Assembly: GCA_046262595.1 (NCBI GenBank)
Contig: JBHEMM010000040.1
Span: forward strand, 1 to 19,487
Direction: 5' to 3'
DNA length: 19,487 nucleotides
DNA from: Vulcanimicrobiaceae bacterium
Lineage (GTDB): Bacteria; Vulcanimicrobiota; Vulcanimicrobiia; Vulcanimicrobiales; Vulcanimicrobiaceae
The first letter of the stretch is position 1. Each line of letters starts with the position of its first letter. This document shows positions 1-9,783 of this stretch, one piece after another. Position numbers and translations under genes: made by a program. The notes beneath the pieces were generated by a model, which made no database searches, was not told the origin of the DNA, and was given only the letters and a program-made list of their open reading frames with translations.

Positions 1-370
1 CATTCACCGGAATCCACACGTGCGCGTACGTGGCAAAGGTCACTGCGACCGCGGCGATCGCTCCGCTCTGGCTTACCAGCAGCGCGGTCCACCCGGACAT
101 GAAGGCGAGCATCGGATGGAATGCATCGCGCACGTAGCCGTACATGCCTCCGACATCGGGGCGGCGCGCGGCAAGCTCGGCAAAAACGAAGCCGCCGATA
201 AGCGCGATGGCGCCGCCCAGAAGCCAAGCAAACACGATAAGACCGCCGGAGTGCAGCCGTTGAGCTACGACCGAGGGCGTCATGAAGATGCCCGAGGCGA
301 CGATACAGCTCATCACGATCAGCGTCGCGTCGAAGGCACCGAGCTGCTTGGCAAGACGAGGCCTGCTCAT
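1..370 (-). CDS. APC-family (LAT-like) amino acid/polyamine permease, N-terminal part; runs off the window
   Basis: Not in the ORF track. Manual translation from ATG at 370 gives MSRPRLAKQLGAFDATLIVMSCIVASGIFMTPSVVAQRLHSGGLIVFAWLLGGAIALIGGFVFAELAARRPDVGGMYGYVRDAFHPMLAFMSGW..., with typical APC motifs (L..LG.FDAT, SGIF, W..GG, FAELA..P..GG.Y.Y, F..GW). The frame is open to base 1. Confidence 0.93.
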   Translation of the reverse strand, partial: MSRPRLAKQLGAFDATLIVMSCIVASGIFMTPSVVAQRLHSGGLIVFAWLLGGAIALIGGFVFAELAARRPDVGGMYGYVRDAFHPMLAFMSGWTALLVSQSGAIAAVAVTFATYAHVWIPVN

Positions 371-397
371 CGTGCGACCATTGCCTGCCTGCCGGCG

Positions 398-565
398 CCT
401 TTTGTGACCTCGACCGTGGTGACATCTCGGCGGATCCCGGCGCTCATCCGACACACGCTGAACCTCGAATCCGGGCTGAACGACGGCCTCGCGCTGCCCT
501 TCGTCCTCTTCTTTTTAGTCCTCGCCCAGCCGGGAGGCGACGCCGGCACCGCAGCGGCGAAGCTG
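398..565 (+). pseudogene. Internal fragment of a CPA1/NhaP-type cation:proton antiporter gene
   Basis: Translates as PFVTSTVVTSRRIPALIRHTLNLESGLNDGLALPFVLFFLVLAQPGGDAG, containing the CPA1 ESGLNDG motif followed by a TM helix. Only about 55 codons, with no N- or C-terminal part and no RBS; antisense to the surrounding operon. Confidence 0.75.
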
Positions 566-567
566 GC

Positions 568-1215
568 TCAGCGGGGCTCGACTTCAGGCGGCAAGATCGC
601 GGATGCAGAACCGGGCGTGACGCTTAGCGCACGCGGCGCCCCGTTTGCCGCACGCCGTATTTCGTAAGCGATCGGCTTACACGAGCCGTTGTTCGTCAGT
701 TCCGACGAGCATGCGCTGATGCCGAAGACGAGGTCGGTCAGCGCTTCGATCGTAAACATGTCGCCGGTGCGGCAGGGCGGCGGATGGATCGTCACGCGGC
801 CGTCGCGGTGCACGCGTACGTCCATGAAAACGTTTATTGTAGCGACGAGCGAATCCGGATCCACGGCGAACTCGCGCAGTGCGCGGCACAAACTTGTAAA
901 ACAACTCGGGTGCGCCGGCTGCCCGCGCCGTGCGAACATTTCCATGCTGCACGGCGCGAGCAGCATATCGTGTGCACCGCAGGTGTCTTCAACGACGCGC
1001 GCGATCGGTGTACTGCGTTGTGAGTACAGCGTCGTTCCGCACGCGAGGCGTGTTGACTCGTTGTAATCGATCGTGCGCCCGGCGGAAAAGGCATCGCGCG
1101 GATCGGCGGCGTTGAAAAGCGCGATGTCGGCCACTTGTTCGCTATGGAGCGCGACGACGCGCAGCCGGGCGCCGCGCCCGAGCAGCCCGGCGGCACCGCT
1201 TTGCGCCGGTAGCAT
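568..1215 (-). CDS. DUF1989 / urea carboxylase-associated (YcgI/CgdAB-like) protein
   Basis: Motifs QVAD, FSAGRTIDY, LYS, EDTCGAHD.L..PC, HPSC, NVFM.V, GISACS, NNGSCKPI. ATG at 1215 overlaps the upstream TAA (TAATG coupling); an alternative ATG lies at 1245. Confidence 0.9.
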   Translation of the reverse strand: MLPAQSGAAGLLGRGARLRVVALHSEQVADIALFNAADPRDAFSAGRTIDYNESTRLACGTTLYSQRSTPIARVVEDTCGAHDMLLAPCSMEMFARRGQPAHPSCFTSLCRALREFAVDPDSLVATINVFMDVRVHRDGRVTIHPPPCRTGDMFTIEALTDLVFGISACSSELTNNGSCKPIAYEIRRAANGAPRALSVTPGSASAILPPEVEPR

Positions 1216-2006
1216 TACGATTGCCGGTGAAACGGGCAGCGCCATTTCTGTTCCGTTTGCCGTCCCGCGTATTGCCGGGCTTCGCTGCTTTCACCGTACG
1301 CACGCAGTTCGGGGTTGACGGAGCCCTGCAGTGCAATCTCCCGCTCACGAACGATTCGCTGGATGCGCTCGAAGTTGCCGTCCCGCTTTGCCGCAGCGAA
1401 TTGTGCGTGTGCGTTGAAGGCCAATGCGGGAACGAACAGACGCCGGGAATCGCGCGAGCTGCGCGGATGCATGCCGACCACAAAAAATGGCGATTGCGCA
1501 AAACTGAAGGCGAAATGCACGCTTTGCGGGTCGGCCGATACACCGGGCGCCCACGGGAAGTGCTTTGCGTCCTCCTCGTGAAGATATTGCAACTGCTTCC
1601 ACAGTGCGCGCTCGAACGACAACTCGTCTTCGATCGGCTGCTCGGCAAACGCGGCGACGAAAGTGGTATAACGGCTGCGCATGTACCGCTGCTCGGCAAC
1701 GAATGCCGCGAGATCGCGCGCGAGCCCTGCGGCGGAACGGCGCGCCGGAAAACCCTCGTACCACCCGAAGCGGTAACCGCCGCTTCGCACCGATGCTTTC
1801 GCCGCAACGCATGAAAAACGCGCGCTCGATAGAAACGCGCGAATCGATTTGTCCGTCATTTTTGCGTTCGCGGAGGGTTCTTTCCAATCGAGCAGACGCA
1901 CGAGGTTGCCGTCCATGACGGCGGAATAGTTGCTGGCCGCTAGGGCCGCTGCCGACGTGAACGGATTGGCCGACTCGTAAAGCGAGACCGCCTGTTGGGG
2001 CGTCAT
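1215..2006 (-). CDS. YqcI/YcgG family heme-dependent guanidino N-hydroxylase (DcsA/GntA-like)
   Basis: Motifs FSCVAAK, FE..LW.QLQ.LH..D, W...VS.DP....F.FS, FFVVGMHP.SSR.SRR, FN.H.QF, R.R...LQGS.NP, SEARQY.GR, and C-terminal WRCPF. ATG at 2006 forms an ATGA overlap with the upstream gene's stop; the ORF-track extension to 2531 overlaps the glycosyltransferase out of frame. Confidence 0.9.
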   Translation of the reverse strand: MTPQQAVSLYESANPFTSAAALAASNYSAVMDGNLVRLLDWKEPSANAKMTDKSIRAFLSSARFSCVAAKASVRSGGYRFGWYEGFPARRSAAGLARDLAAFVAEQRYMRSRYTTFVAAFAEQPIEDELSFERALWKQLQYLHEEDAKHFPWAPGVSADPQSVHFAFSFAQSPFFVVGMHPRSSRDSRRLFVPALAFNAHAQFAAAKRDGNFERIQRIVREREIALQGSVNPELRAYGESSEARQYAGRQTEQKWRCPFHRQS

Positions 2007-2989
2007 CGCTGCCACGCTCGCTGCAGCAGCCGCGTCGGCGTTGCGGCACGCGTGACCACGGTTCCGCTGTAGCGCATTCCGCCGAAGCACACGCGCGAAC
2101 CAACCGCAAGCCATGCGCAGATCGCGCGTTCGCAAACCCAGAGCGGCGCGGTAAACACCGCCGCGATCGGAAAATACTGCGCGCCGCCCGCACGCGCGAA
2201 ACCGATCCCCGCTGCCGCCATTGCCAGCCCTGCCAGCGTAACGGGGATCTGCCAGTTGTGCGCAGCGATGCATCCGGCGAGGACGGGAAGCACCGTAAGC
2301 GCTGAAGCAAGCCGCAGCGGGCGCGCGAACTCGTCGTATGCCTGGCGGATGCGCTGACTCAAAAAGTGCGCACTTGAGGGCGAAAGGCGCCGCACGTAGA
2401 TCCGGCGCGCAACGATTTCGCGTCCACCCTGCGCGCGGATCGTGCGCACGAGCTCCAGATTTTCGAACAGCACGTTCGCATCGTATCCCCGAGGCAGCGC
2501 TTGCGCACGAAACGCAAGCGTGCCGGGCCAATCGCCGTCAAGCGCACGATTGATCAGGGTGCGCGAGGTGTCCAGAATCGCGTGCCAAGGAAGCGGCTCG
2601 AAATAATTCTGCGGACGCACGACGTCAGCACGTTCGAGCGCCGCGAGCGTGCGCTCAAGCGCTGCGTTCTCGTAACGGACGTCGTCGTCGGCGACGACGA
2701 TGTACGGCTGTGTGGCGAACTGCAATCCCGTCAAAACGCCGCGCACCTTTCCGTTCGTGCCCGCGATATGGGGGTCCGGCGGCACGTGTACCGCCACGCC
2801 GTCCAACACTTTGCGGTGCTCTGCGAAAACCGAGGGCGGCGAACCATCGACGACAACGATTTGCTTCACTGCAAGCGAGCGTAAATAAGCTGCGAACTCC
2901 CCCCGAATAACGGCGCAGGAAGCGCGAAGGGGCAACAGGTAGGTCGTTTTCTCAGCGTAGGGGCCCGCCATGTTGGACACTATTCCCAC
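2003..2989 (-). CDS. Membrane-associated glycosyltransferase, GT2/GT21-like
   Basis: IVVVDGS, NGKV (compare GT21 NPK), DxD motif ADDDVRY, FENLEL, QRIRQ (QxxRW variant) and hydrophobic C-terminal helices. GTG start lies 9 nt after AGGAG. Confidence 0.85.
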   Translation of the reverse strand: MGIVSNMAGPYAEKTTYLLPLRASCAVIRGEFAAYLRSLAVKQIVVVDGSPPSVFAEHRKVLDGVAVHVPPDPHIAGTNGKVRGVLTGLQFATQPYIVVADDDVRYENAALERTLAALERADVVRPQNYFEPLPWHAILDTSRTLINRALDGDWPGTLAFRAQALPRGYDANVLFENLELVRTIRAQGGREIVARRIYVRRLSPSSAHFLSQRIRQAYDEFARPLRLASALTVLPVLAGCIAAHNWQIPVTLAGLAMAAAGIGFARAGGAQYFPIAAVFTAPLWVCERAICAWLAVGSRVCFGGMRYSGTVVTRAATPTRLLQRAWQR

Positions 2990-3983
2990 TACTGCGTACT
3001 CCTTGCGAAAAGTCGAACGCCATGCTTGCGTCGTATGCGCCGCAGTCCGCGATAACGACCGCCGCGCCGGCTTCGCATCCGCTTAGATCCACGTTGCTCG
3101 CAACGACGTCATATTCCAAACACGTCCGTCCGAGAATGCGTCCGGCGCCGGCGCGCACCGGCTCGATGCGTCCATTACGCATCAAAAAGAGCCGATGCTC
3201 GAACGTGCGGATCTGCGGCACATCGGGGTACCCGGCGTCGATTACGATGTCGTTCTCGCGCACCTCCAGAATCGGAGCGATCTGCGCTTCGACCGCCGCG
3301 GCAAGCGCTTGCCCGGGCTCCGCAAGGACAAGCTTCACCGATGCAAGCGAGCCGCTCACGGCGTCTTCAAGCCATTCAAAATCGCCTGCGCGTACCGATG
3401 CGTCAAATGTGCGCGGCTCTTTACCGCCGCCGCAATCAAATGCGGCAACGCGCGAGCCGGAGGCGCGCTCCAAGTCTTGTGCGATGCTTATGACGGATTG
3501 CGCGAGTGCGCGCCACGTGTACCGGCCGTAGTCTTCAGGACGCACGTGAAAGGACACGCCGAAGGACGCGCGACCGCTCTCGCGGATCGCCCGGGCCAGC
3601 TGCACAAGATCTTCGTGCGGCACGCCGAACCGCGATGCGATCTGCGGCGGCCGCACGCGCACGCCGCACAGCGCGCCGGCGAACCGCTGTGCGTTTTGGG
3701 TAAAAGCTTGCACCGAATCGGCGAAAACAATGCCCGGCTGCGCGCCGCAAAACGCCGCCGGGTACGGGCCGTTATACACGATCGCAGGAAGCGGCGCCCC
3801 GAAGCGGGCGGCGTGTTCCAATTCGGCGGGACTGATCACTTCCGGCCGAATTCCGTTGTCGAGCGCGGCCTGCAGCATCTCTACGCGCGGATTCGTTTTA
3901 ACGCTGTAGCAGAATTGCAGCAGGCGGCGTTCGCACTGCAACTGCGCGAGCGATTCGAACGCGCGACGTGCAACGCCGTTCAA
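2952..3983 (-). CDS. Fold-type III PLP-dependent decarboxylase (Orn/DAP/Arg decarboxylase family), divergent
   Basis: YSVKTNP (PLP lysine), EVISPAEL, YNGP, SRFG, DCGGG, EPGQ, GRTCLEYD (catalytic Cys) and GAY. The start is uncertain: TTG at 3983 or a coupled CTG at 4073. Confidence 0.85.
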   Translation of the reverse strand: MNGVARRAFESLAQLQCERRLLQFCYSVKTNPRVEMLQAALDNGIRPEVISPAELEHAARFGAPLPAIVYNGPYPAAFCGAQPGIVFADSVQAFTQNAQRFAGALCGVRVRPPQIASRFGVPHEDLVQLARAIRESGRASFGVSFHVRPEDYGRYTWRALAQSVISIAQDLERASGSRVAAFDCGGGKEPRTFDASVRAGDFEWLEDAVSGSLASVKLVLAEPGQALAAAVEAQIAPILEVRENDIVIDAGYPDVPQIRTFEHRLFLMRNGRIEPVRAGAGRILGRTCLEYDVVASNVDLSGCEAGAAVVIADCGAYDASMAFDFSQGVRSSGNSVQHGGPLR

Positions 3984-4069
3984 AAAAACGCGTTCGCGCC
4001 GGTACGGCGGCTGCGCGGCGCGCGCAGTGAGCTCCTCGAGAATCGCAGCGGCGGAGACTTCCAGGGCGT

Positions 4070-4357
4070 TCAGATGTCGTCGCGTAACTCGAACGTTTCG
4101 CCGAGATCCGCGACGGCCAGAAAATCCCGAACGCGTGCGCTCACGTGTGCCAGCACGATCGGCGTCTTGCCTGCCTCCGTGCGCGCGCGCTGGAAGCGGA
4201 CGAGCGAACGCATTGCTGCCGTGTCGATCCCGTTGACGGCTTCGAAGTCGAAAACCAGGGGTTCGGCATCACCGAACCGGTCCAGAAGCGAGTCGAGTTC
4301 GTCACGCCGGGAGATGTCGTACTCCCCCGTCAAACGCACGATGGCGGCGTCGTCCAT
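4070..4357 (-). CDS. STAS domain protein (anti-sigma factor antagonist-like)
   Basis: 95 aa; VRLTGEYDI...L, LVFDFEAVNGIDTAAMRSL (Thr at the usual phospho-Ser position), V..FLAVADL. Confidence 0.85.
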   Translation of the reverse strand: MDDAAIVRLTGEYDISRRDELDSLLDRFGDAEPLVFDFEAVNGIDTAAMRSLVRFQRARTEAGKTPIVLAHVSARVRDFLAVADLGETFELRDDI

Positions 4358-4402
4358 TGGCGATATTTCTACCCCATGCGCTTACCGTCCAATTGGCTAG
4401 AG

Positions 4403-4444
4403 CTTGAACGCTTCAAGTAGGAAATACGCGGGCCCGGCCGATAA
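4403..4444. promoter_or_regulatory. Divergent control region: inverted repeat CTTGAA-cgc-TTCAAG (4403-4417) and sigma28-like -10 GCCGATAA (4437-4444, + strand)
   Basis: Perfect 6-bp inverted repeat between the divergent STAS and S41 genes. GCCGATAA matches the FliA/SigD -10 consensus 8 nt before the S41 ATG, but the -35 match (TAGG) is weak. Confidence 0.35.
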
Positions 4445-4452
4445 ATACGGAT

Positions 4453-5772
4453 ATGCGCTTACCACGCCGGGCCGTTTCTATTGCCGTTATCTTTGCGTTG
4501 CCGCTGGCTCTGTTTGCCGCGGCCCCTCCGGCGGGCGCCGGCGAGGACCTGCGCGAGAGCTATCAGCTGCTCTCGGCAACGTATTATTCAAGGGTCGACG
4601 TACAGCACCTCATGGACAGCGTTCGCGATTCGCTTGCGGAATCGGCGCGCAAACGCGGCGTGCGTCTGACGCTTCCCGCTTTACACGACAGCGGCAACGG
4701 CGGAGCGAACGTGTCCGCACTTTCGGACGCCATCGCGCTGGCTCAAAACGCAACCCACGAATCGGGTGTCGATCTGACGTATGGCGCCATTGAGGCGATG
4801 GCGCGCTCGATCGGCGATCGCTACACCGCATTCTTTACTCCCGATGAATTTCGCAAATTTAACGCGGCGCTCGACCCCGAAAAGATCTCCGGCATCGGCG
4901 TGCTGATCGAACCCGACCCGCTTACGAAATATATCCGCGCCTATTACGTCGTGCCCGGGACGCCCGCGGAGAGAGCTGGCCTGCAGACGGGCGATGTCTT
5001 TACCGCCATTGACGGTGTGTCCACGCGCAACCACAATCAGGAGAGCGCATCCAAATTGCTGCGCGGAAACATCGGCACGGCCGTGCACGTCCAATTCGAA
5101 CGCGACGGGAAAGCGCAGCCGCCCCTATCGATTACGCGATCGGAAGTGCGTCCGCCCACCGTCATCTACAAGATGCTCGCGCAGCATGTGGCGTACATTT
5201 GGATCATGCAGTTCGGGCGGGAAACGCCGTCGGAGTTTTCCAGCGCGCTCGATCGCGCCCAGCGCAACGATGTACGCGCGTATGTGATCGATCTGCGCAA
5301 CGACGGCGGCGGATATGTGAGCTCGGCGCTCGACATCAGCTCTAAATTTGTCAATAGCGATCCGTTGTTGACGATCGAACAGCGCGGCGCCGCGAGCGAA
5401 ACGGTGGATGCTCAAGGCCACGCCTTGCCGCCGCGTCCCATGGCGCTGCTCGTCAACCGTTATACGGCTTCCGCCTCCGAGATCACGGCCGGCGCGCTTC
5501 AAGACGACGGCATAGCGGTGCTCGTCGGCGAAAAAACGTTCGGCAAAGGCGTGATGCAATCGCTCACGCAGTTGCCCGACGGCGCGGCTATCAAGATCAC
5601 GACGGCGCATTATCTCACCCCGAAGAACCGCGATATCAACCTCAAAGGCATCGAGCCCGACTATACGGTTACGGAAAACAAGGACGCGCGCTATGGCGAC
5701 GTCGAGCACGACTCGCAACTTCAAGCCGCTTTGACGATTCTCGGAAAGAAAATCGCCCAGGCGAAACCGTGA
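4453..5772 (+). CDS. ctpA: S41A carboxy-terminal processing protease with PDZ domain
   Basis: Signal peptide, D.YT, SGIG, PDZ (PA.RAGLQ.GD), DLRNDGGG, TASASE (catalytic Ser), TFGKG (catalytic Lys), TTAHYLTP, GIEPD. Confidence 0.95.
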   Translation: MRLPRRAVSIAVIFALPLALFAAAPPAGAGEDLRESYQLLSATYYSRVDVQHLMDSVRDSLAESARKRGVRLTLPALHDSGNGGANVSALSDAIALAQNATHESGVDLTYGAIEAMARSIGDRYTAFFTPDEFRKFNAALDPEKISGIGVLIEPDPLTKYIRAYYVVPGTPAERAGLQTGDVFTAIDGVSTRNHNQESASKLLRGNIGTAVHVQFERDGKAQPPLSITRSEVRPPTVIYKMLAQHVAYIWIMQFGRETPSEFSSALDRAQRNDVRAYVIDLRNDGGGYVSSALDISSKFVNSDPLLTIEQRGAASETVDAQGHALPPRPMALLVNRYTASASEITAGALQDDGIAVLVGEKTFGKGVMQSLTQLPDGAAIKITTAHYLTPKNRDINLKGIEPDYTVTENKDARYGDVEHDSQLQAALTILGKKIAQAKP

Positions 5773-5850
5773 CCGCTGTGAGGATGTGCTTCTTGGCGGG
5801 ACGCTCGCGCATGAAGATCTCGTTTCCGCCGCATGCGTTGAGCGGTCGGC

Positions 5851-5856
5851 TACAAT
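5851..5856 (+). promoter_or_regulatory. -10 element TACAAT of a probable leaderless promoter
   Basis: TACAAT lies 6 nt upstream of the ATG at 5863, and no Shine-Dalgarno sequence is present. Confidence 0.55.
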
Positions 5857-5862
5857 ACGGTC

Positions 5863-6330
5863 ATGAGTAAAGGGCCCAACACCGCAGGCGTAGTCGCCTT
5901 CCCTCCGCTGATCTACGGCATTCCGCTTTTGACCACGCTCATCGTCGACCGCGTGACCTCCAAGAAGCGGCTGCCTGCGCCGCTGCGCCTGCTCTCGATA
6001 GGGTTTTTCGCGGCCGCAGCGTCAGTCATGGCTCCATCGTTTCGCGAGTTCGGCAAAGCGCAAACGCCGGTGGATCCGTTCGAAGAAACGACGGCGCTTG
6101 TGCAATCGGGCCCGTACGCGTACACGCGCAATCCGATCTACGTGGGGTTGACCCTCGCATACGCGGGCGTTGCCTTCGCGGCGGGCAGCGGTTTATCGCT
6201 TGCTGCACTGCCCGTGATTGTGCGGTTCATGAACGCGGGCGTCATTGAACGCGAGGAGCGCTACCTCGAGCAAAAATTCGGCGAGCAATATCGCCGGTAT
6301 AAAGCGAAGGCGCCTCGCTGGCTGTATTAA
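5863..6330 (+). CDS. Isoprenylcysteine carboxyl methyltransferase / PEMT family membrane methyltransferase
   Basis: PP.IY N-terminus, TPVDP, LV.SGPYAYTRNPIYVG, EERYLEQKFGEQYRRYK...PRW. Confidence 0.92.
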   Translation: MSKGPNTAGVVAFPPLIYGIPLLTTLIVDRVTSKKRLPAPLRLLSIGFFAAAASVMAPSFREFGKAQTPVDPFEETTALVQSGPYAYTRNPIYVGLTLAYAGVAFAAGSGLSLAALPVIVRFMNAGVIEREERYLEQKFGEQYRRYKAKAPRWLY

Positions 6331-6507
6331 GCCGACACCGTTTCTTGTGCCGGACGGCAGCAACCATCGCGGGATGATCGCGCCCCATGCGGCGGCGTTT
6401 GCGAGCTGTTGCCGCAGCGAACCTACGGCAAGCCGAACGACGTGCCGGTTCGAAATCACCAGGTTAACGCTTGCCTTGCGCGAACCGTCGCCGCAAAGGA
6501 GGTTCTG

Positions 6508-6963
6508 ATGAAACCGTTTATATGTTTTCTGGCTTTTTTAATGCTGTTTCCGCCGAACGGGAACGCCGCCGGCACCGTGACGCCCCCAGCGCAAATGATG
6601 AAAAACGCGCTTGGCGCGTTCACCTGCACCACAGGTGGCGCGCGGAAGCACAGTTCGACGTTTTCCCCGCTCTTCGGCGGCAAAGCAATGGAGCTTTCGG
6701 AAGCGACCGAACGCGGTTTTGTGACCTACGATCGTTCCAAAAACAAATGGATCTATTCCTATCTTGGGGCGGACGGCTCGTATTCGCTCTTGGAAGGCAA
6801 GAGCGTCGCGGCGAACGGCATTGATTTTACATCGGTGTATCCCTCGGGAATGAACACGACGCTCAAGGTGCGCTATCAAAGCACGAAGCACTTTACGGTT
6901 CGGTTCAGTGGCGTAGTGAACGGCAAGGCGTTCGGCCAAACGGAGATTTGTTCGCGCAGCTAG
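6508..6963 (+). CDS. Secreted hypothetical protein, probably beta-rich
   Basis: Strong SD AAGGAGG 5 nt before ATG 6508. Signal-peptide-like MKPFICFLAFLMLF...NAA; Cys near each end of the mature region (FTCTT, EICSRS). Confidence 0.75.
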   Translation: MKPFICFLAFLMLFPPNGNAAGTVTPPAQMMKNALGAFTCTTGGARKHSSTFSPLFGGKAMELSEATERGFVTYDRSKNKWIYSYLGADGSYSLLEGKSVAANGIDFTSVYPSGMNTTLKVRYQSTKHFTVRFSGVVNGKAFGQTEICSRS

Positions 6964-7001
6964 CGCAGGCGCTGCTTCGTTGCAAACGTCACGCGTTTTT
7001 C

Positions 7002-7028
7002 AGCCGGGCCGCAGTCCGCGGCCCGGCT
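7002..7028. terminator. Perfect 11-bp GC-rich hairpin between convergent genes (possible terminator)
   Basis: AGCCGGGCCGC-agtcc-GCGGCCCGGCT. There is no canonical U-tract after it on either strand. Confidence 0.45.
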
Positions 7029-7117
7029 CGATCGGCAGGCGGTCCGAGCTAAGGGCGTCGTTTAGTTTAATTCCCGTGTACGAGGCTCGTCGACTTCGGT
7101 ACCGTCTGAGTCGGCGG

Positions 7118-7675
7118 TCAATCCATTGTCCATCCCGCCGGCTTCGGCTTGCGCGGCAAATTCTTGGGGTACGTGCCCTCAGGATACTTGGCCTTGAACT
7201 CGCTGGCCAGCACCGCGAGATACTCAAAGTTCTCATACACCCCTGGCCCGGCCGTAATCCGGCGAGCGAAGACGAGCGGAGCGAGTGCTTCCCATGAACC
7301 GATGACGTTGTCGCCCCATAAATCGCAGAAAATCGTCGCGTCGATGATTCGATTTTTGACCAGGCAGCCCGCATTTTCGAAAAAGTTGCCGACGACGAGC
7401 GCCGCCTCGAGCTCGGGCAATCCGTTGATCCTTGGCAAACTGACCACTTTTTGCAAGAACTCGCGTTCGTTAAGGCGTTCCGCGAGGTTGCCGTAGATTT
7501 CGCGAAGTTTCAGCTGGAAAGCCGGATTCTCGATCGTTTCACGAAGCTCGGTAAGCGCAAGAATCTGATTCGACCCGCGCATATGGCGCACTTGAGTTAT
7601 CGCCGCGAACACCGAGCCGGCGATCACAACCATGGTCACCAGGGACGAGATAGCGCCCACCCATTCCGGCGTCAT
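7118..7675 (-). CDS. DUF4760-like protein with an N-terminal TM helix
   Basis: MTPEWVGAISSLVTMVVIAGSVFAAITQVRHMR..NQ, GNFFE..G.LVK...ID, W..L.P....R, YENFEYLA. The real start is ATG 7675; the ORF-track extension runs through the MCC relic. Confidence 0.8.
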   Translation of the reverse strand: MTPEWVGAISSLVTMVVIAGSVFAAITQVRHMRGSNQILALTELRETIENPAFQLKLREIYGNLAERLNEREFLQKVVSLPRINGLPELEAALVVGNFFENAGCLVKNRIIDATIFCDLWGDNVIGSWEALAPLVFARRITAGPGVYENFEYLAVLASEFKAKYPEGTYPKNLPRKPKPAGWTMD

Positions 7676-7685
7676 TGCAGCGAGC

Positions 7686-7883
7686 TCACAGCCGAGAGAC
7701 GCCGTCGTAGATCGTCGGCAGGATGGGCGCGTGCGCGGCCGATCCAAACCCATTGCGATGATTCCGTGCGTGCCGAGCGGATCGACGATCGTCGCCCCAG
7801 GTCCGCGCCATGGAACAATACGCGCTGCCTTCGCTTTCGTACTTGTCCAGAATCGGCCGCTCGAACTCGTCCGTCGTCTCGGC
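7686..7883 (-). pseudogene. Frameshifted relic of the 3' end of a methylcrotonyl-CoA carboxylase-type carboxyltransferase beta subunit
   Basis: Stitching frames gives DEFERPILDKYESEGSAYCSMARTWGD / IVDPLGTHGIIAMGLD / AAHAPILPTIYDGVSRL*, matching the family C-terminus F..PI...YE.EG..YY.TARLWDDG.IDP..TR..L...L.AA..API..T.YGVFRM. Two frameshifts near 7790 and 7740. Confidence 0.75.
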
Positions 7884-8112
7884 TTTCGGTAGAAACGGCG
7901 CTGGCCCGGTGCATGGTGTCTGTTTTCGCCTATCACGAATGCAGAACCATCCTTTACGACGAAGCAAAATCACTGGCTCATCGCCCCGACACGCCGGTGC
8001 GCGTACACGGCGAACCGGCGCGACGCTCGGAACCGCCGGGCCAACGCGTTCCGCAAGACCTCGGCCTCAATAGAGCAGCCCGCGCTGCTAATGCCTACGC
8101 TAAGAGCGTCGG

Positions 8113-8493
8113 TTATGTTCCGTGGACGACGGAAGACAACTGAGACGCGCTTTTGATATCGAAACGCTTCACCTTGCCGCCTTCAATGCGGAAGACGTGA
8201 CGAACCGTCTCCTCAAGCAGCAGAGCACCGTTAAGATCGTGGACAATCTGGTGAACCTGCACCGCCGTCGAACCATCAGGTTCTTGGCTAATTTTGTTCG
8301 GCTGGACATGCGGACTGATTGTCGCCCACTGTTCCGTCCAATATGCTCGGACGGCTTCACGGCCATGAACATGCCCTCCATCCATCCCGTTGGCCCATTC
8401 GACATCCTCGGCGAGCGCTGCAAGAACGTCGTCAATGTTTCGCGCGTTAAAGCCGCTGTAGAGCTGTTGAACTAATTCTATATCGCTTGGCAT
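8113..8493 (-). CDS. SnoaL-like / NTF2-family protein
   Basis: LY..FN.R.ID..LA.L.EDVEW.NGMDGGHVHGREAVRAYWT.QW, V.VHQ.V.DL.G, V.H.F....G.V.RFDI; SD GGAGG upstream of the ATG. Confidence 0.92.
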   Translation of the reverse strand: MPSDIELVQQLYSGFNARNIDDVLAALAEDVEWANGMDGGHVHGREAVRAYWTEQWATISPHVQPNKISQEPDGSTAVQVHQIVHDLNGALLLEETVRHVFRIEGGKVKRFDIKSASQLSSVVHGT

Positions 8494-8898
8494 TACGTCC
8501 TCCGGCGAAGCTTCTCGAAGAAGTGAAGTGCGAGACGGTTAGCGCTAGTGTTCCGCTCTGCACCGGAAATCCGCTTTGGACGCGCCGTTCCGCGCGCTCG
8601 AAATGGATTAACGGAATTCGGTGCCGATAGGCTGATTCGCAAGAAAAAATTGCATTTCGATATTCGCGGCCGCACGTTTTCGCGTGGCAAAAAAGGATTG
8701 ACGCCCGCCCAGCCCGTGGACGGCATACATCGCGTTTCTGGGGTATGTGTTCATTCGCCAGCTCAACCAAAGTCCAGAGGCGCTACGCGGCGCCCTGCAT
8801 AAGCAAGGGTCTCTGCGTCCGAGCTGCGCGTTGGCGGCTGACAAAGGGTCAGGACAAGGGTGAAGAGCCGCTGAACGGTGTAGTGCTACGGGAATCAG

Positions 8899-8909
8899 TG
8901 ATATAAAAT
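8899..8909 (+). promoter_or_regulatory. Extended -10 promoter for the tRNA
   Basis: TGaTATAAAAT in an AT-rich patch ending 8 nt before the tRNA 5' end. Confidence 0.6.
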
Positions 8910-8917
8910 AAGATCAC

Positions 8918-8990
8918 GGGCGATTAACTCAGTTGGGAGAGTGCCTCCCTTACAAGGAGGATGTCGGCGGTTCGAGCCCGTCATCGCCCA
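8918..8990 (+). tRNA. tRNA-Val(TAC); CCA not encoded
   Basis: Cloverleaf: acceptor GGGCGAT/ATCGCCC plus discriminator A, D arm ACTC/GAGT, anticodon arm CCTCC-CTTACAA-GGAGG (TAC at 8951-8953), T arm GGCGG-TTCGAGC-CCGTC. Confidence 0.98.
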
Positions 8991-8997
8991 TATCTTT

Positions 8998-9783
8998 ATG
9001 AACCACATGAACCATGTCGCAACCGCCTTCGAAGACGACGGCGGCATCGCCGTCCTCACCATGCAGCGGCCTGACAAGCGCAACGCTCTCTCGCTCGAGC
9101 TGATGCGCGAGTTGATCGGCGCGTTTCAAAGCGTTTCGGCGCAGCAAGGCGTCTACGCCGTCGTCTTGCGAGGCGAAGGCGCCGCCTTCAGCGCCGGGCA
9201 CGATCTGCGCGAGTTGGCTTGCCGCGATGAGGAAGCATACCGCGAGATCTTCGATGTTTGCGTTGAACTCATGCAGACGATCCAGCGTATTCCTCAGCCC
9301 GTCATCGCCGAAGTGCAGACAATTGCCACGGCCGCGGGCTGCCAGCTCGTTGCAAGCTGCGATCTCGCCGTCGCCGCGGAAGGTGCGCGCTTCGCCACAC
9401 CGGGCGTGCGGATCGGTTTGTTCTGCACCACGCCGATGGTCGCGCTCACGCGCGCTATTGGGCGCAAACGCGCGATGGAGATGCTCCTCACCGGTGAATT
9501 CATCGACGCGGCCACGGCGGCGCAATGGGGGCTGGTGAACCGCGTCGTGCCCGCGGGCCGCCTGCACCACGAAGTGTTGGAGCTCGCACGGAAGATAGGG
9601 CAAGCAAGCCGCACGGTTGTCGCACTCGGCAAGCAAGCATTTTACACACAGATCGAACTCGAGCAAGGCCGCGCGTATAACTACGCCAAAGAGATCATGA
9701 CCGCGAACGCGCAGGCGGCGGACGCCCAAGAAGGCATTGCAGCTTTTGCCGAAAAGCGGCTCGCGAAGTGGAAAACAGGATGA
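8998..9783 (+). CDS. Enoyl-CoA hydratase/isomerase (crotonase, ECHDC3-like)
   Basis: KRNALS, FSAGHDL, PQPVIAEV...ATAAGCQLVASCDL, FATPGV.IGLFC.TPMV, AMEMLLTG, EGIAAF.EKR. Start is ATG 8998 or 9007; the ORF-track start at 8941 lies inside the tRNA. Confidence 0.95.
   Translation: MNHMNHVATAFEDDGGIAVLTMQRPDKRNALSLELMRELIGAFQSVSAQQGVYAVVLRGEGAAFSAGHDLRELACRDEEAYREIFDVCVELMQTIQRIPQPVIAEVQTIATAAGCQLVASCDLAVAAEGARFATPGVRIGLFCTTPMVALTRAIGRKRAMEMLLTGEFIDAATAAQWGLVNRVVPAGRLHHEVLELARKIGQASRTVVALGKQAFYTQIELEQGRAYNYAKEIMTANAQAADAQEGIAAFAEKRLAKWKTG

Follow-up and report, generated by a model that had tools for sequence, protein, structure and literature searches.

The window analyzed here is a stretch of 19,487 nucleotides, the whole of contig C40 (JBHEMM010000040.1) in the 2.4-Mb, 89.7% complete genome of a Vulcanimicrobiaceae bacterium. 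Homologues that carry names point to Eremiobacterota/Vulcanimicrobiota. Near the left end of the window we found a four-gene cassette encoding a fold-III pyridoxal 5′-phosphate (PLP) decarboxylase, a membrane glycosyltransferase of family 2 (GT2, here GT), a YqcI/YcgG protein, and a DUF1989 protein (Table 1). The module is a real, uncharacterized four-gene unit, every part of which comes from a known family. The four genes probably share one pathway, and we tentatively propose that it makes a sugar-capped N-hydroxy metabolite from an arginine-type guanidine. A first-pass annotation of the DNA had seen six minus-strand genes here, the four above plus a STAS gene and an APC permease gene, and profile searches recovered all six with the families it gave. 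It had also held that no described pathway has this combination; none was found in the open literature; such neighborhoods may be covered by family surveys supplementary to PMC12866846 and to the ChmN preprint.

Conservation and exchange of the cassette genes

Among 61 relatives, 12 had YqcI, with the GT gene adjacent in 10 and the decarboxylase gene in 7. A survey of 301 genomes of the phylum found the GT in 38 and the decarboxylase in 31, and we compared 41 loci (11 YqcI loci plus 30 further GT loci), 39 of which have the GT. The first-pass annotation had made its proposal depend on the decarboxylase and GT being conserved beside the YqcI/DUF1989 pair in relatives, and this is what we observed: YqcI adjoined the GT at 39/39 of these other loci, DUF1989 at 38, and the fold-III decarboxylase at 29, 26 times in the window's order and three times divergently. 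The single locus without DUF1989 stops at a contig edge. The genomes G048, G023, and G031, which supplied three of the loci (L036, L039, and L040), are unpublished; minus these loci, the counts are 36/36 for YqcI, 36/36 for DUF1989, and 26/36 for the decarboxylase. In the reverse test, the GT was present in 29 of the 31 decarboxylase genomes and adjacent in 28; among the exceptions, the locus is split at contig ends in G267 and the gene is a fragment at a contig end in G182. The flanks vary widely (rpsL cluster, galactose genes, transporters), and the cassette therefore moves as a unit, consisting of the decarboxylase, GT2, YqcI/YcgG, and DUF1989 genes. In one genus (L110, L111, L113 to L115, L117, L119, and L120), it lies directly upstream of rpsL-rpsG-fusA-tuf, co-oriented, the gene names being taken from translations.

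The other two genes are local neighbors of the cassette. The permease had been put forward as the importer; the permease query matched near only 1 of the 39 cassette loci, on the opposite strand (convergent), and the gene has a 67% paralogue on contig C4 of the same genome. STAS had been treated as a fixed part, and no orthologue stood beside any of the 39 cassettes, nor did tblastn give a match in the 41 relatives' loci. On these counts both were rejected as pathway parts. Unrelated STAS genes lie directly upstream of the cassette in L097, L098, and L105.

A scan of GTDB with the GT gave 47 loci of other phyla, a sample restricted to sequences sharing an exact 8-residue word. YqcI and DUF1989 were both within 3 kb of the GT at 21 of them (Gemmatimonadota, Acidobacteriota, Chloroflexota, and Rubrobacter). 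At 16 others, from Actinomycetota, a heme-oxygenase-like diiron protein (HDO) was within this distance, nine times with a CDGSH protein. No locus of the 47 had both YqcI and HDO near the GT, and DUF1989 was found at 0/16 HDO-linked loci. The solved structures nearest to the HDO were HrmI, SznF, and RohS, and HrmI and RohS act as N-oxygenases. The HDO domain of SznF is an N-oxygenase, and its replacement by YqcI in guanidine N-oxygenation is proposed in a preprint (bioRxiv 10.1101/2024.01.24.577118). In one actinomycete family of 101 genomes, all 10 GT genes adjoin an HDO gene and 10 more genomes have the HDO alone; YqcI plus DUF1989 also occur without the cassette's GT, on Deinococcus, Comamonas, and Skermanella plasmids. 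The GT is nearly always accompanied by an N-oxygenase candidate, and not vice versa, which fits a downstream tailoring step. Misfits to this rule were L063, where a Micromonospora GT has a CYP152 gene as its neighbor, and three loci with methyltransferases (L068, L072, and L090). The actinomycete CDGSH-HDO-GT2 operon, with a GT of the same family, was seen in L044, L056, L061, L062, L065, L069, L070, L073, L075, L077 to L080, L082, L083, and L085.

The decarboxylase is exchanged as well: in Gemmatimonadaceae its place is taken by a dedicated fold-I decarboxylase that is unrelated to the fold-III enzyme. A gene of this type, resembling aromatic amino-acid decarboxylases (AADC), lies divergent from the GT at 18 of the 47 loci. 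In the family of L059 (121 genomes, including one unpublished row, G323), AADC-like genes occur in 93 genomes, and a clade of at least 62% identity in only 14. Thirteen of these 14 have the GT, adjacent in 12, the family having 14 GT genomes in all, and eight keep a separate paralogue at no more than 54% identity. The dedicated paralogue (L059:5487-6938 and relatives) was seen in Gemmatimonadaceae and some Acidobacteriota, and an acyltransferase-3 gene flanks five Gemmatimonadaceae loci.

Fusions join several of these partners. Among 18 longer GT homologues, 11 were GT-YqcI fusions without DUF1989, one was an HDO-GT fusion (P0130, Microbispora), and one a GT-DUF2231-Rieske fusion; YqcI-DUF1989 fusions made up 19 of the 24 longer YqcI homologues. 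P0124 and P0134 have N-termini of no recognized family. Out-of-frame stretches in P0136 (a triple fusion), P0137 (a methyltransferase fusion), and P0138 mark these three as probable assembly errors, and they were excluded. Apart from these, P0159 has a YqcI domain fused to a nonribosomal peptide synthetase (NRPS) condensation domain (PF00668), and on a Rahnella plasmid (L123, NZ_CP019065) a YqcI homologue belongs to another kind of small cluster (short-chain dehydrogenase/reductase, 2Fe-2S, LysE, PheT-like, and MOSC proteins) without DUF1989.

Active sites and the proposed route

The YqcI protein scored above the curated cut-offs of PF08892 (193.7 against 27) and NF041366 (255 against 145). 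Its C66, F175, and R188, invariant in 27 sequences, align with C44, F152, and R166 of AglA; the match is weak (E 5e-8), the alignment ends at AglA 185, short of the distal residues K196 and R200, and Q177 and R179 are not kept in register. In AglA, C44 is the axial heme thiolate and R166 and F152 are heme/substrate residues, and the characterized YqcI/YcgG enzymes, about six in number, belong to antibiotic or toxin clusters and use soluble guanidines (PMC12866846); the family has more than 4,000 members (bioRxiv 10.1101/2024.01.24.577118). By analogy with all characterized members, the window protein would be a heme guanidine N-hydroxylase acting on a guanidine. It resembles AglA, ChmN, GntA, DcsA, AmbT, and Mhr24 in family, Cys thiolate, and F152/R166 equivalents; those enzymes sit in antibiotic or toxin clusters, whereas the partners here are DUF1989, the GT2, and the decarboxylase. 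In the chalkophomycin and streptozotocin systems, heme YqcI (ChmN) and diiron HDO (SznF) are proposed to be interchangeable for N-oxygenation, and either is found beside the GT; the cassette loci differ in that neither an SznF cupin nor an NRPS nor a step of N-N bond formation was seen, and a membrane GT follows instead. The NCBI label "guanitoxin GntA" carried by widespread YqcI homologues (of 19 plasmid matches, 17 carried the name gntA or YqcI) is misleading here.

The DUF1989 protein had been likened to CgdAB, a carboxyguanidine deiminase. This did not hold: the gene is single-copy in the genome, with no CgdA/B pair, its scores lie far below both cut-offs (TIGR03424, 88.8 against 284.7; TIGR03425, 66.2 against 206), and an Rfam search at E up to 1 over positions 1 to 9000 gave only a tRNA and a chance miRNA match, with no guanidine riboswitch. 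Bacillus subtilis carries both PF08892 and PF09347 in control searches, presumably in the adjacent genes ycgG-ycgH-ycgI; the two families are common to the window, where the permease is not a conserved partner. Five residues (D40, C99, H112, C115, and C179) align with D220, C285, H298, C301, and C365 of Tdm, among them zinc-site residues (PMC13619132 and PMC12560246). Tdm is described there as a trimethylamine N-oxide demethylase whose zinc is bound by the N-oxide oxygen (PMC13619132). The window protein is like CgdAB and Tdm in its three-Cys zinc site and D220 and H298 equivalents and unlike them in being a single 225-amino-acid domain from one gene, with neither CgdA/B pair, riboswitch, nor C-terminal GcvT domain. 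Tdm F327 and D367 are replaced by Met141 and Ser181, the Tdm score was 72 against 1100, and orthology to CgdAB and Tdm was rejected on cut-offs or residues.

The GT model (pLDDT 95.7) has the architecture of hyaluronan synthase, cellulose synthase, and PcManGT, a GT-A fold with interface and membrane helices, and matched enzymes of this fold with Z scores of 20.8, 18.5, and 17.9; the Z of 20.8 is over 284 residues, with a root-mean-square deviation of 3.0 to hyaluronan synthase. It keeps a DxD motif (D95-D97) and a QxxRW-like motif (Q206-R209-Q210). In inverting GT2 enzymes the catalytic-base Asp stands at the start of the finger helix, in an xED or xDD motif. At this site the GT helix starts at 170, and F169-E170-N171, invariant in 45 sequences, aligned with A-D-D of PcManGT in a weak profile match (E 6e-4), so that Asn stands where the catalytic Asp is expected. 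Judged from model and alignment, the subfamily appears to lack the catalytic base, and E170 or E173 could substitute.

The decarboxylase has the barrel-plus-sheet fold and the core PLP residues (K58, H175, G214 to 216, E251, C317, and Y346, numbered from 4070); the phosphate-binding Arg is replaced by Gln254, and the motifs EPGQ and C-L-E-Y-D are present. Leu318 follows the catalytic Cys in at least 90% of 119 sequences. In ornithine, arginine, and diaminopimelate decarboxylases (ODC, ADC, and DAPDC) this place is taken by an acid to which the amine of the side chain binds, whereas Met stands there in FigC (PMC7857480). The best PDB match by sequence was FslC/FigC, N-citrylornithine decarboxylase (E 5e-31), and the top Foldseek rows were a viral arginine decarboxylase, marginally above ODC/DAPDC, at a TM score of about 0.7 for all that does not discriminate between them; the nearest Atlas fold (TM 0.90) is fused to an ATP-grasp domain. 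Scores were 66 against 298 for lysA and 41 against 500 bits for FslC, a stronger PF02784 gene lies on C7, and named members of the subfamily are nearly all Eremiobacterota. Orthology to LysA, ADC, and FslC was rejected, since cut-offs or residues fell short. The first-pass idea that Arg is first decarboxylated to agmatine is argued against, because Leu318 replaces the acid that binds Arg, Orn, or Lys side chains; the nearest solved relative by sequence, moreover, acts on N-citrylornithine. FslC/FigC, SbnH, and BtrK, decarboxylases of conjugated amino acids, were the best sequence matches, with the hydrophobic residue after Cys as in FigC; the cassette differs from their systems in having no NRPS-independent siderophore synthetase or acyl carrier protein and in its own EPGQ and HVRPxD motifs.

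In the route we propose, YqcI, with the heme ligand assigned by alignment, would hydroxylate a guanidine nitrogen. The zinc DUF1989 protein, whose coupling to YqcI is shown by the fusions, would act directly on the product and most likely convert C=NH to C=O by a CgdAB-like deamination, leaving a neutral N-hydroxyurea (hydroxycitrulline-like) side chain. The membrane GT, with Asn for the catalytic Asp, may then add a sugar to the already acidic N-OH, and the decarboxylase, to judge from its active site, would act late, on the modified uncharged amino acid and not on free Arg. If the side chain is neutral, both Leu318 and the reliance on an AADC-like enzyme in other lineages would be accounted for. 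N-O-glycosides of N-hydroxyguanidine or N-hydroxyurea amines might even be an unrecognized class of stress metabolites of soil bacteria in at least five phyla, built with a base-less GT2, a heme or diiron N-oxygenase, and one of two unrelated decarboxylases; we think this doubtful. If true, the products could be stored to scavenge radicals, or could act as metal ligands or supply NO.

Hydroxamate siderophores are made by a decarboxylase, an N-hydroxylase, and acylation, and the cassette shares this logic of decarboxylase, N-hydroxylase, and capping transferase. It differs in its heme or diiron rather than flavin hydroxylase, a sugar rather than acyl cap, a promoter predicted to be of stress rather than iron type, and the lack of a synthetase. 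The module allows a direct test of the role of the common YqcI-DUF1989 pair, with DUF1989 here a candidate for a third reaction in its family, and offers an entry into the stress chemistry of Eremiobacterota and Gemmatimonadota, two phyla that are abundant in soil and have few cultured members.

Predicted stress-type promoter and rival explanations

Across the genome, GGG[TA]A peaks 15 and 16 nt before gene starts (37 and 20 occurrences, against mostly 2 to 13 at other distances), mostly without the final T of the housekeeping −10 box. It resembles the −10 of the mycobacterial SigF promoter, GTTT-N14-19-GGGTA (PMC4694148), and at this distance probably marks a leaderless SigB-like regulon in the lineage. 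The box preceded the decarboxylase at 15/28 loci, the GT at 14/40 (counted 14 to 18 nt before a GT start), YqcI at 1/42, and DUF1989 at 0/41, with controls of 1, 3, 1, and 0; in the window it precedes STAS and GT. Some relatives have an exact −35 (L112, L113, L116, L069, and L082), L069 and L082 being actinomycete loci with exact SigF-type promoters. A sigma factor of the SigB/F/G type, over its cut-off, is encoded beside anti-sigma and STAS genes in one operon (C1:120510-122074), and the 32 genes with GGGTA at this spacing, all of which were scanned, include ferritin-like, hemerythrin, BON, two AI-2E, SpoIIE, formate/nitrite, aldo-keto reductase, and Nramp genes. These patterns point to a SigB-type stress sigma factor as the likely activator of the cassette, with STAS best read as another regulon member at the operon head. 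A sigma-70 promoter scan found none, terminator-like sites numbered 8 against 6.9 expected, and EcfG and Crp motifs were not enriched. Catalase, hemerythrin, DUF4383, AI-2E, and SpoIIE genes, as in stress islands, were seen near cassettes.

Several observations weigh against a single stress-induced pathway of the kind proposed. The substrate, the product, and the stress transcription of the cassette are all read from sequence. A quick tree of 79 GTs (8 rows with a best match below 260 residues left out) separated the HDO-linked from the YqcI-linked groups at a single branch (SH-aLRT 96), with each decarboxylase type confined to one subtree and recruited once; given the one-branch split, the oxygenase swap may be a single event, and the independent events are few, kin not being independent. 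At 10 of the 47 GT loci outside the host phylum, 5 of which are clear of contig edges, neither oxygenase lies within 3 kb, and 9 of the 38 GT genomes of the host phylum have no decarboxylase. G264 (C3:590573-591580) has a diverged decarboxylase (38 to 39%) with no GT, YqcI, or DUF1989 within 13 kb. The fold-I partner is closer to aromatic amino-acid decarboxylases (E 2.5e-108) than to Lys/Orn ones, the distal AglA residues Q177, R179, and F182 are not clearly kept in the weak alignment, the enzymes that the GT looks like (GT21, CrtQ-like) use lipid acceptors, and the cassette is without a conserved reductase partner. As for the promoter, the −35 box is not enriched genome-wide and is not exact in the window, the −10-like box precedes 0/46 GT genes of other phyla, and the GGGTA genes also include L25 and RsmD-like genes, several that are no obvious stress genes, and 10 of 32 without a family.

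The look-alikes of the GT raise the possibility of a membrane-lipid product, in which the GT would have a lipid as its acceptor, such as an aminolipid with an N-hydroxylated and decarboxylated head group, in envelope remodeling under stress. The PcManGT/hyaluronan/cellulose-synthase membrane fold would suit this, an acidic lipid acceptor would likewise need no base, and the acyltransferase-3 gene flanks five Gemmatimonadaceae loci. We nevertheless consider it unlikely, as the cassette has no conserved acyltransferase in the host phylum and the characterized YqcI enzymes listed in PMC12866846 use soluble guanidines. Equally unlikely, in our view, is that co-regulated general-stress genes have merely clustered and occasionally fused, without a common substrate, YqcI and DUF1989 being a two-step unit and the GT and decarboxylase unrelated to it. 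Separate −10 boxes before the decarboxylase and GT, neighbors typical of stress islands, the plasmid-borne YqcI-DUF1989 pairs without the GT, and a GT-DUF2231-Rieske fusion showing that fusions can be incidental all favor clustering; the repeated GT-YqcI fusions, the mutual exclusion of YqcI and HDO, and the AADC paralogue that tracks the GT exceed what it predicts.

Two further readings start from single enzymes. In a catabolic or detoxifying route like Tmm/Tdm, the amine from the decarboxylase would be N-oxygenated and zinc DUF1989 would cleave N-C, giving an aldehyde plus a guanidine or amine of smaller size, with a reactive by-product capped by the GT. The three zinc cysteines, D220, and H298 of Tdm are kept, the N-oxide oxygen binds the Tdm zinc (PMC13619132), and the AADC-like partner makes amines; with Tdm F327 and D367 not kept, DUF1989 at none of the 16 HDO-linked loci, and no aldehyde dehydrogenase conserved, this is quite improbable. 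The original agmatine route (Arg import by the permease, decarboxylation, N-hydroxylation, then glycosylation or hydrolysis, under STAS control) is very unlikely. A fold-III decarboxylase and the marginal Foldseek lead of the viral arginine decarboxylase speak for it, and the unconserved permease and STAS, the missing acid after the catalytic Cys, and an antiporter relic lying before the permease speak against it.

Gene starts and surroundings in the window

Table 1. Features of the cassette region of the window
Feature	Position	Strand	Remarks
SigB/SigF-type −10-like box GGGTAG	4369..4374	−	17 nt upstream of STAS start; predicted leaderless/short-leader stress promoter
STAS, anti-sigma-antagonist-like	4070..4357	−	PF13466 E 1e-9; local addition, not conserved pathway part
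Fold-III PLP decarboxylase	2952..4073	−	PF02784 35 bits; probable CTG start 4073 or 4064
Internal SigB-type −10-like box GGGAAT	2982..2987	−	16 nt before GT ATG
Membrane GT2, cellulose/hyaluronan-synthase-like fold	2003..2971	−	DDD (DxD), QRxRQ, F-E-N at catalytic-base position
YqcI/YcgG thiolate-heme N-hydroxylase-family protein, GntA-like clade	1215..2006	−	PF08892 + NF041366
DUF1989 zinc protein, neither CgdA/CgdB nor Tdm	568..1245	−	PF09347 154 bits
Cation:proton antiporter gene relic, between DUF1989 and permease	395..544 (about)	+	PF00999 E 4e-4
APC amino-acid permease, truncated at contig end	1..370	−	PF13520 E 1.5e-14

The junctions described in the first-pass annotation stood in part. 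The STAS stop (4072-4070) with the decarboxylase frame open across it and the ATGA at 2003-2006 are there in the letters. The 38-nt overlap of decarboxylase and GT is correct if the GT starts at GTG 2989; the likelier start is ATG 2971, behind its own GGGAAT box, giving a 20-nt overlap, and the position of this box is kept in seven close relatives. The TAATG at 1213-1217 is present and is probably not the YqcI-DUF1989 junction. In 38 of 39 co-oriented YqcI-DUF1989 loci (window included) a start codon lies 19 to 37 nt inside YqcI, and only 3 of 39 have an ATG at the TAATG position; DUF1989 therefore most likely starts at ATG 1245, 31 nt inside YqcI. The decarboxylase has no ATG, GTG, or TTG before 3983 in the window. 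Matches in relatives run from query residue 5 to 28 onward, and their starts map to about 4073-4064 in a DNA alignment that is not clean; the window has CTG codons in this region, and CTG 4073 overlaps the STAS stop as CTGA, so that a start at CTG 4073 or 4064 is probable.

An APC permease gene does follow the operon, starting about 200 nt beyond DUF1989 with the antiporter relic between them. The relic is 65% identical over 23 amino acids to a cation:proton antiporter (E 2e-3) and had no further match in the genome (tblastn, E 1e-3), and the last 25 or so residues of DUF1989 are unlike those of its relatives. The relic and the odd C-terminus suggest that insertion of the cassette took place within a broken antiporter gene or next to one. 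On the other side of the cassette, positions 5863 to 8990 are lower in GC content (0.56 to 0.60) and hold small accessory genes (DUF4760, SnoaL, and unknown) up to a tRNA (8918-8990); this stretch may be a small integrated island. Its plus-strand gene at 5863-6330 encodes a PEMT/ICMT-type membrane methyltransferase, homologues of which adjoin the fold-I decarboxylase in L059, L067, L081, L086, and L089 (Gemmatimonadaceae), probably a coincidence in a large family.

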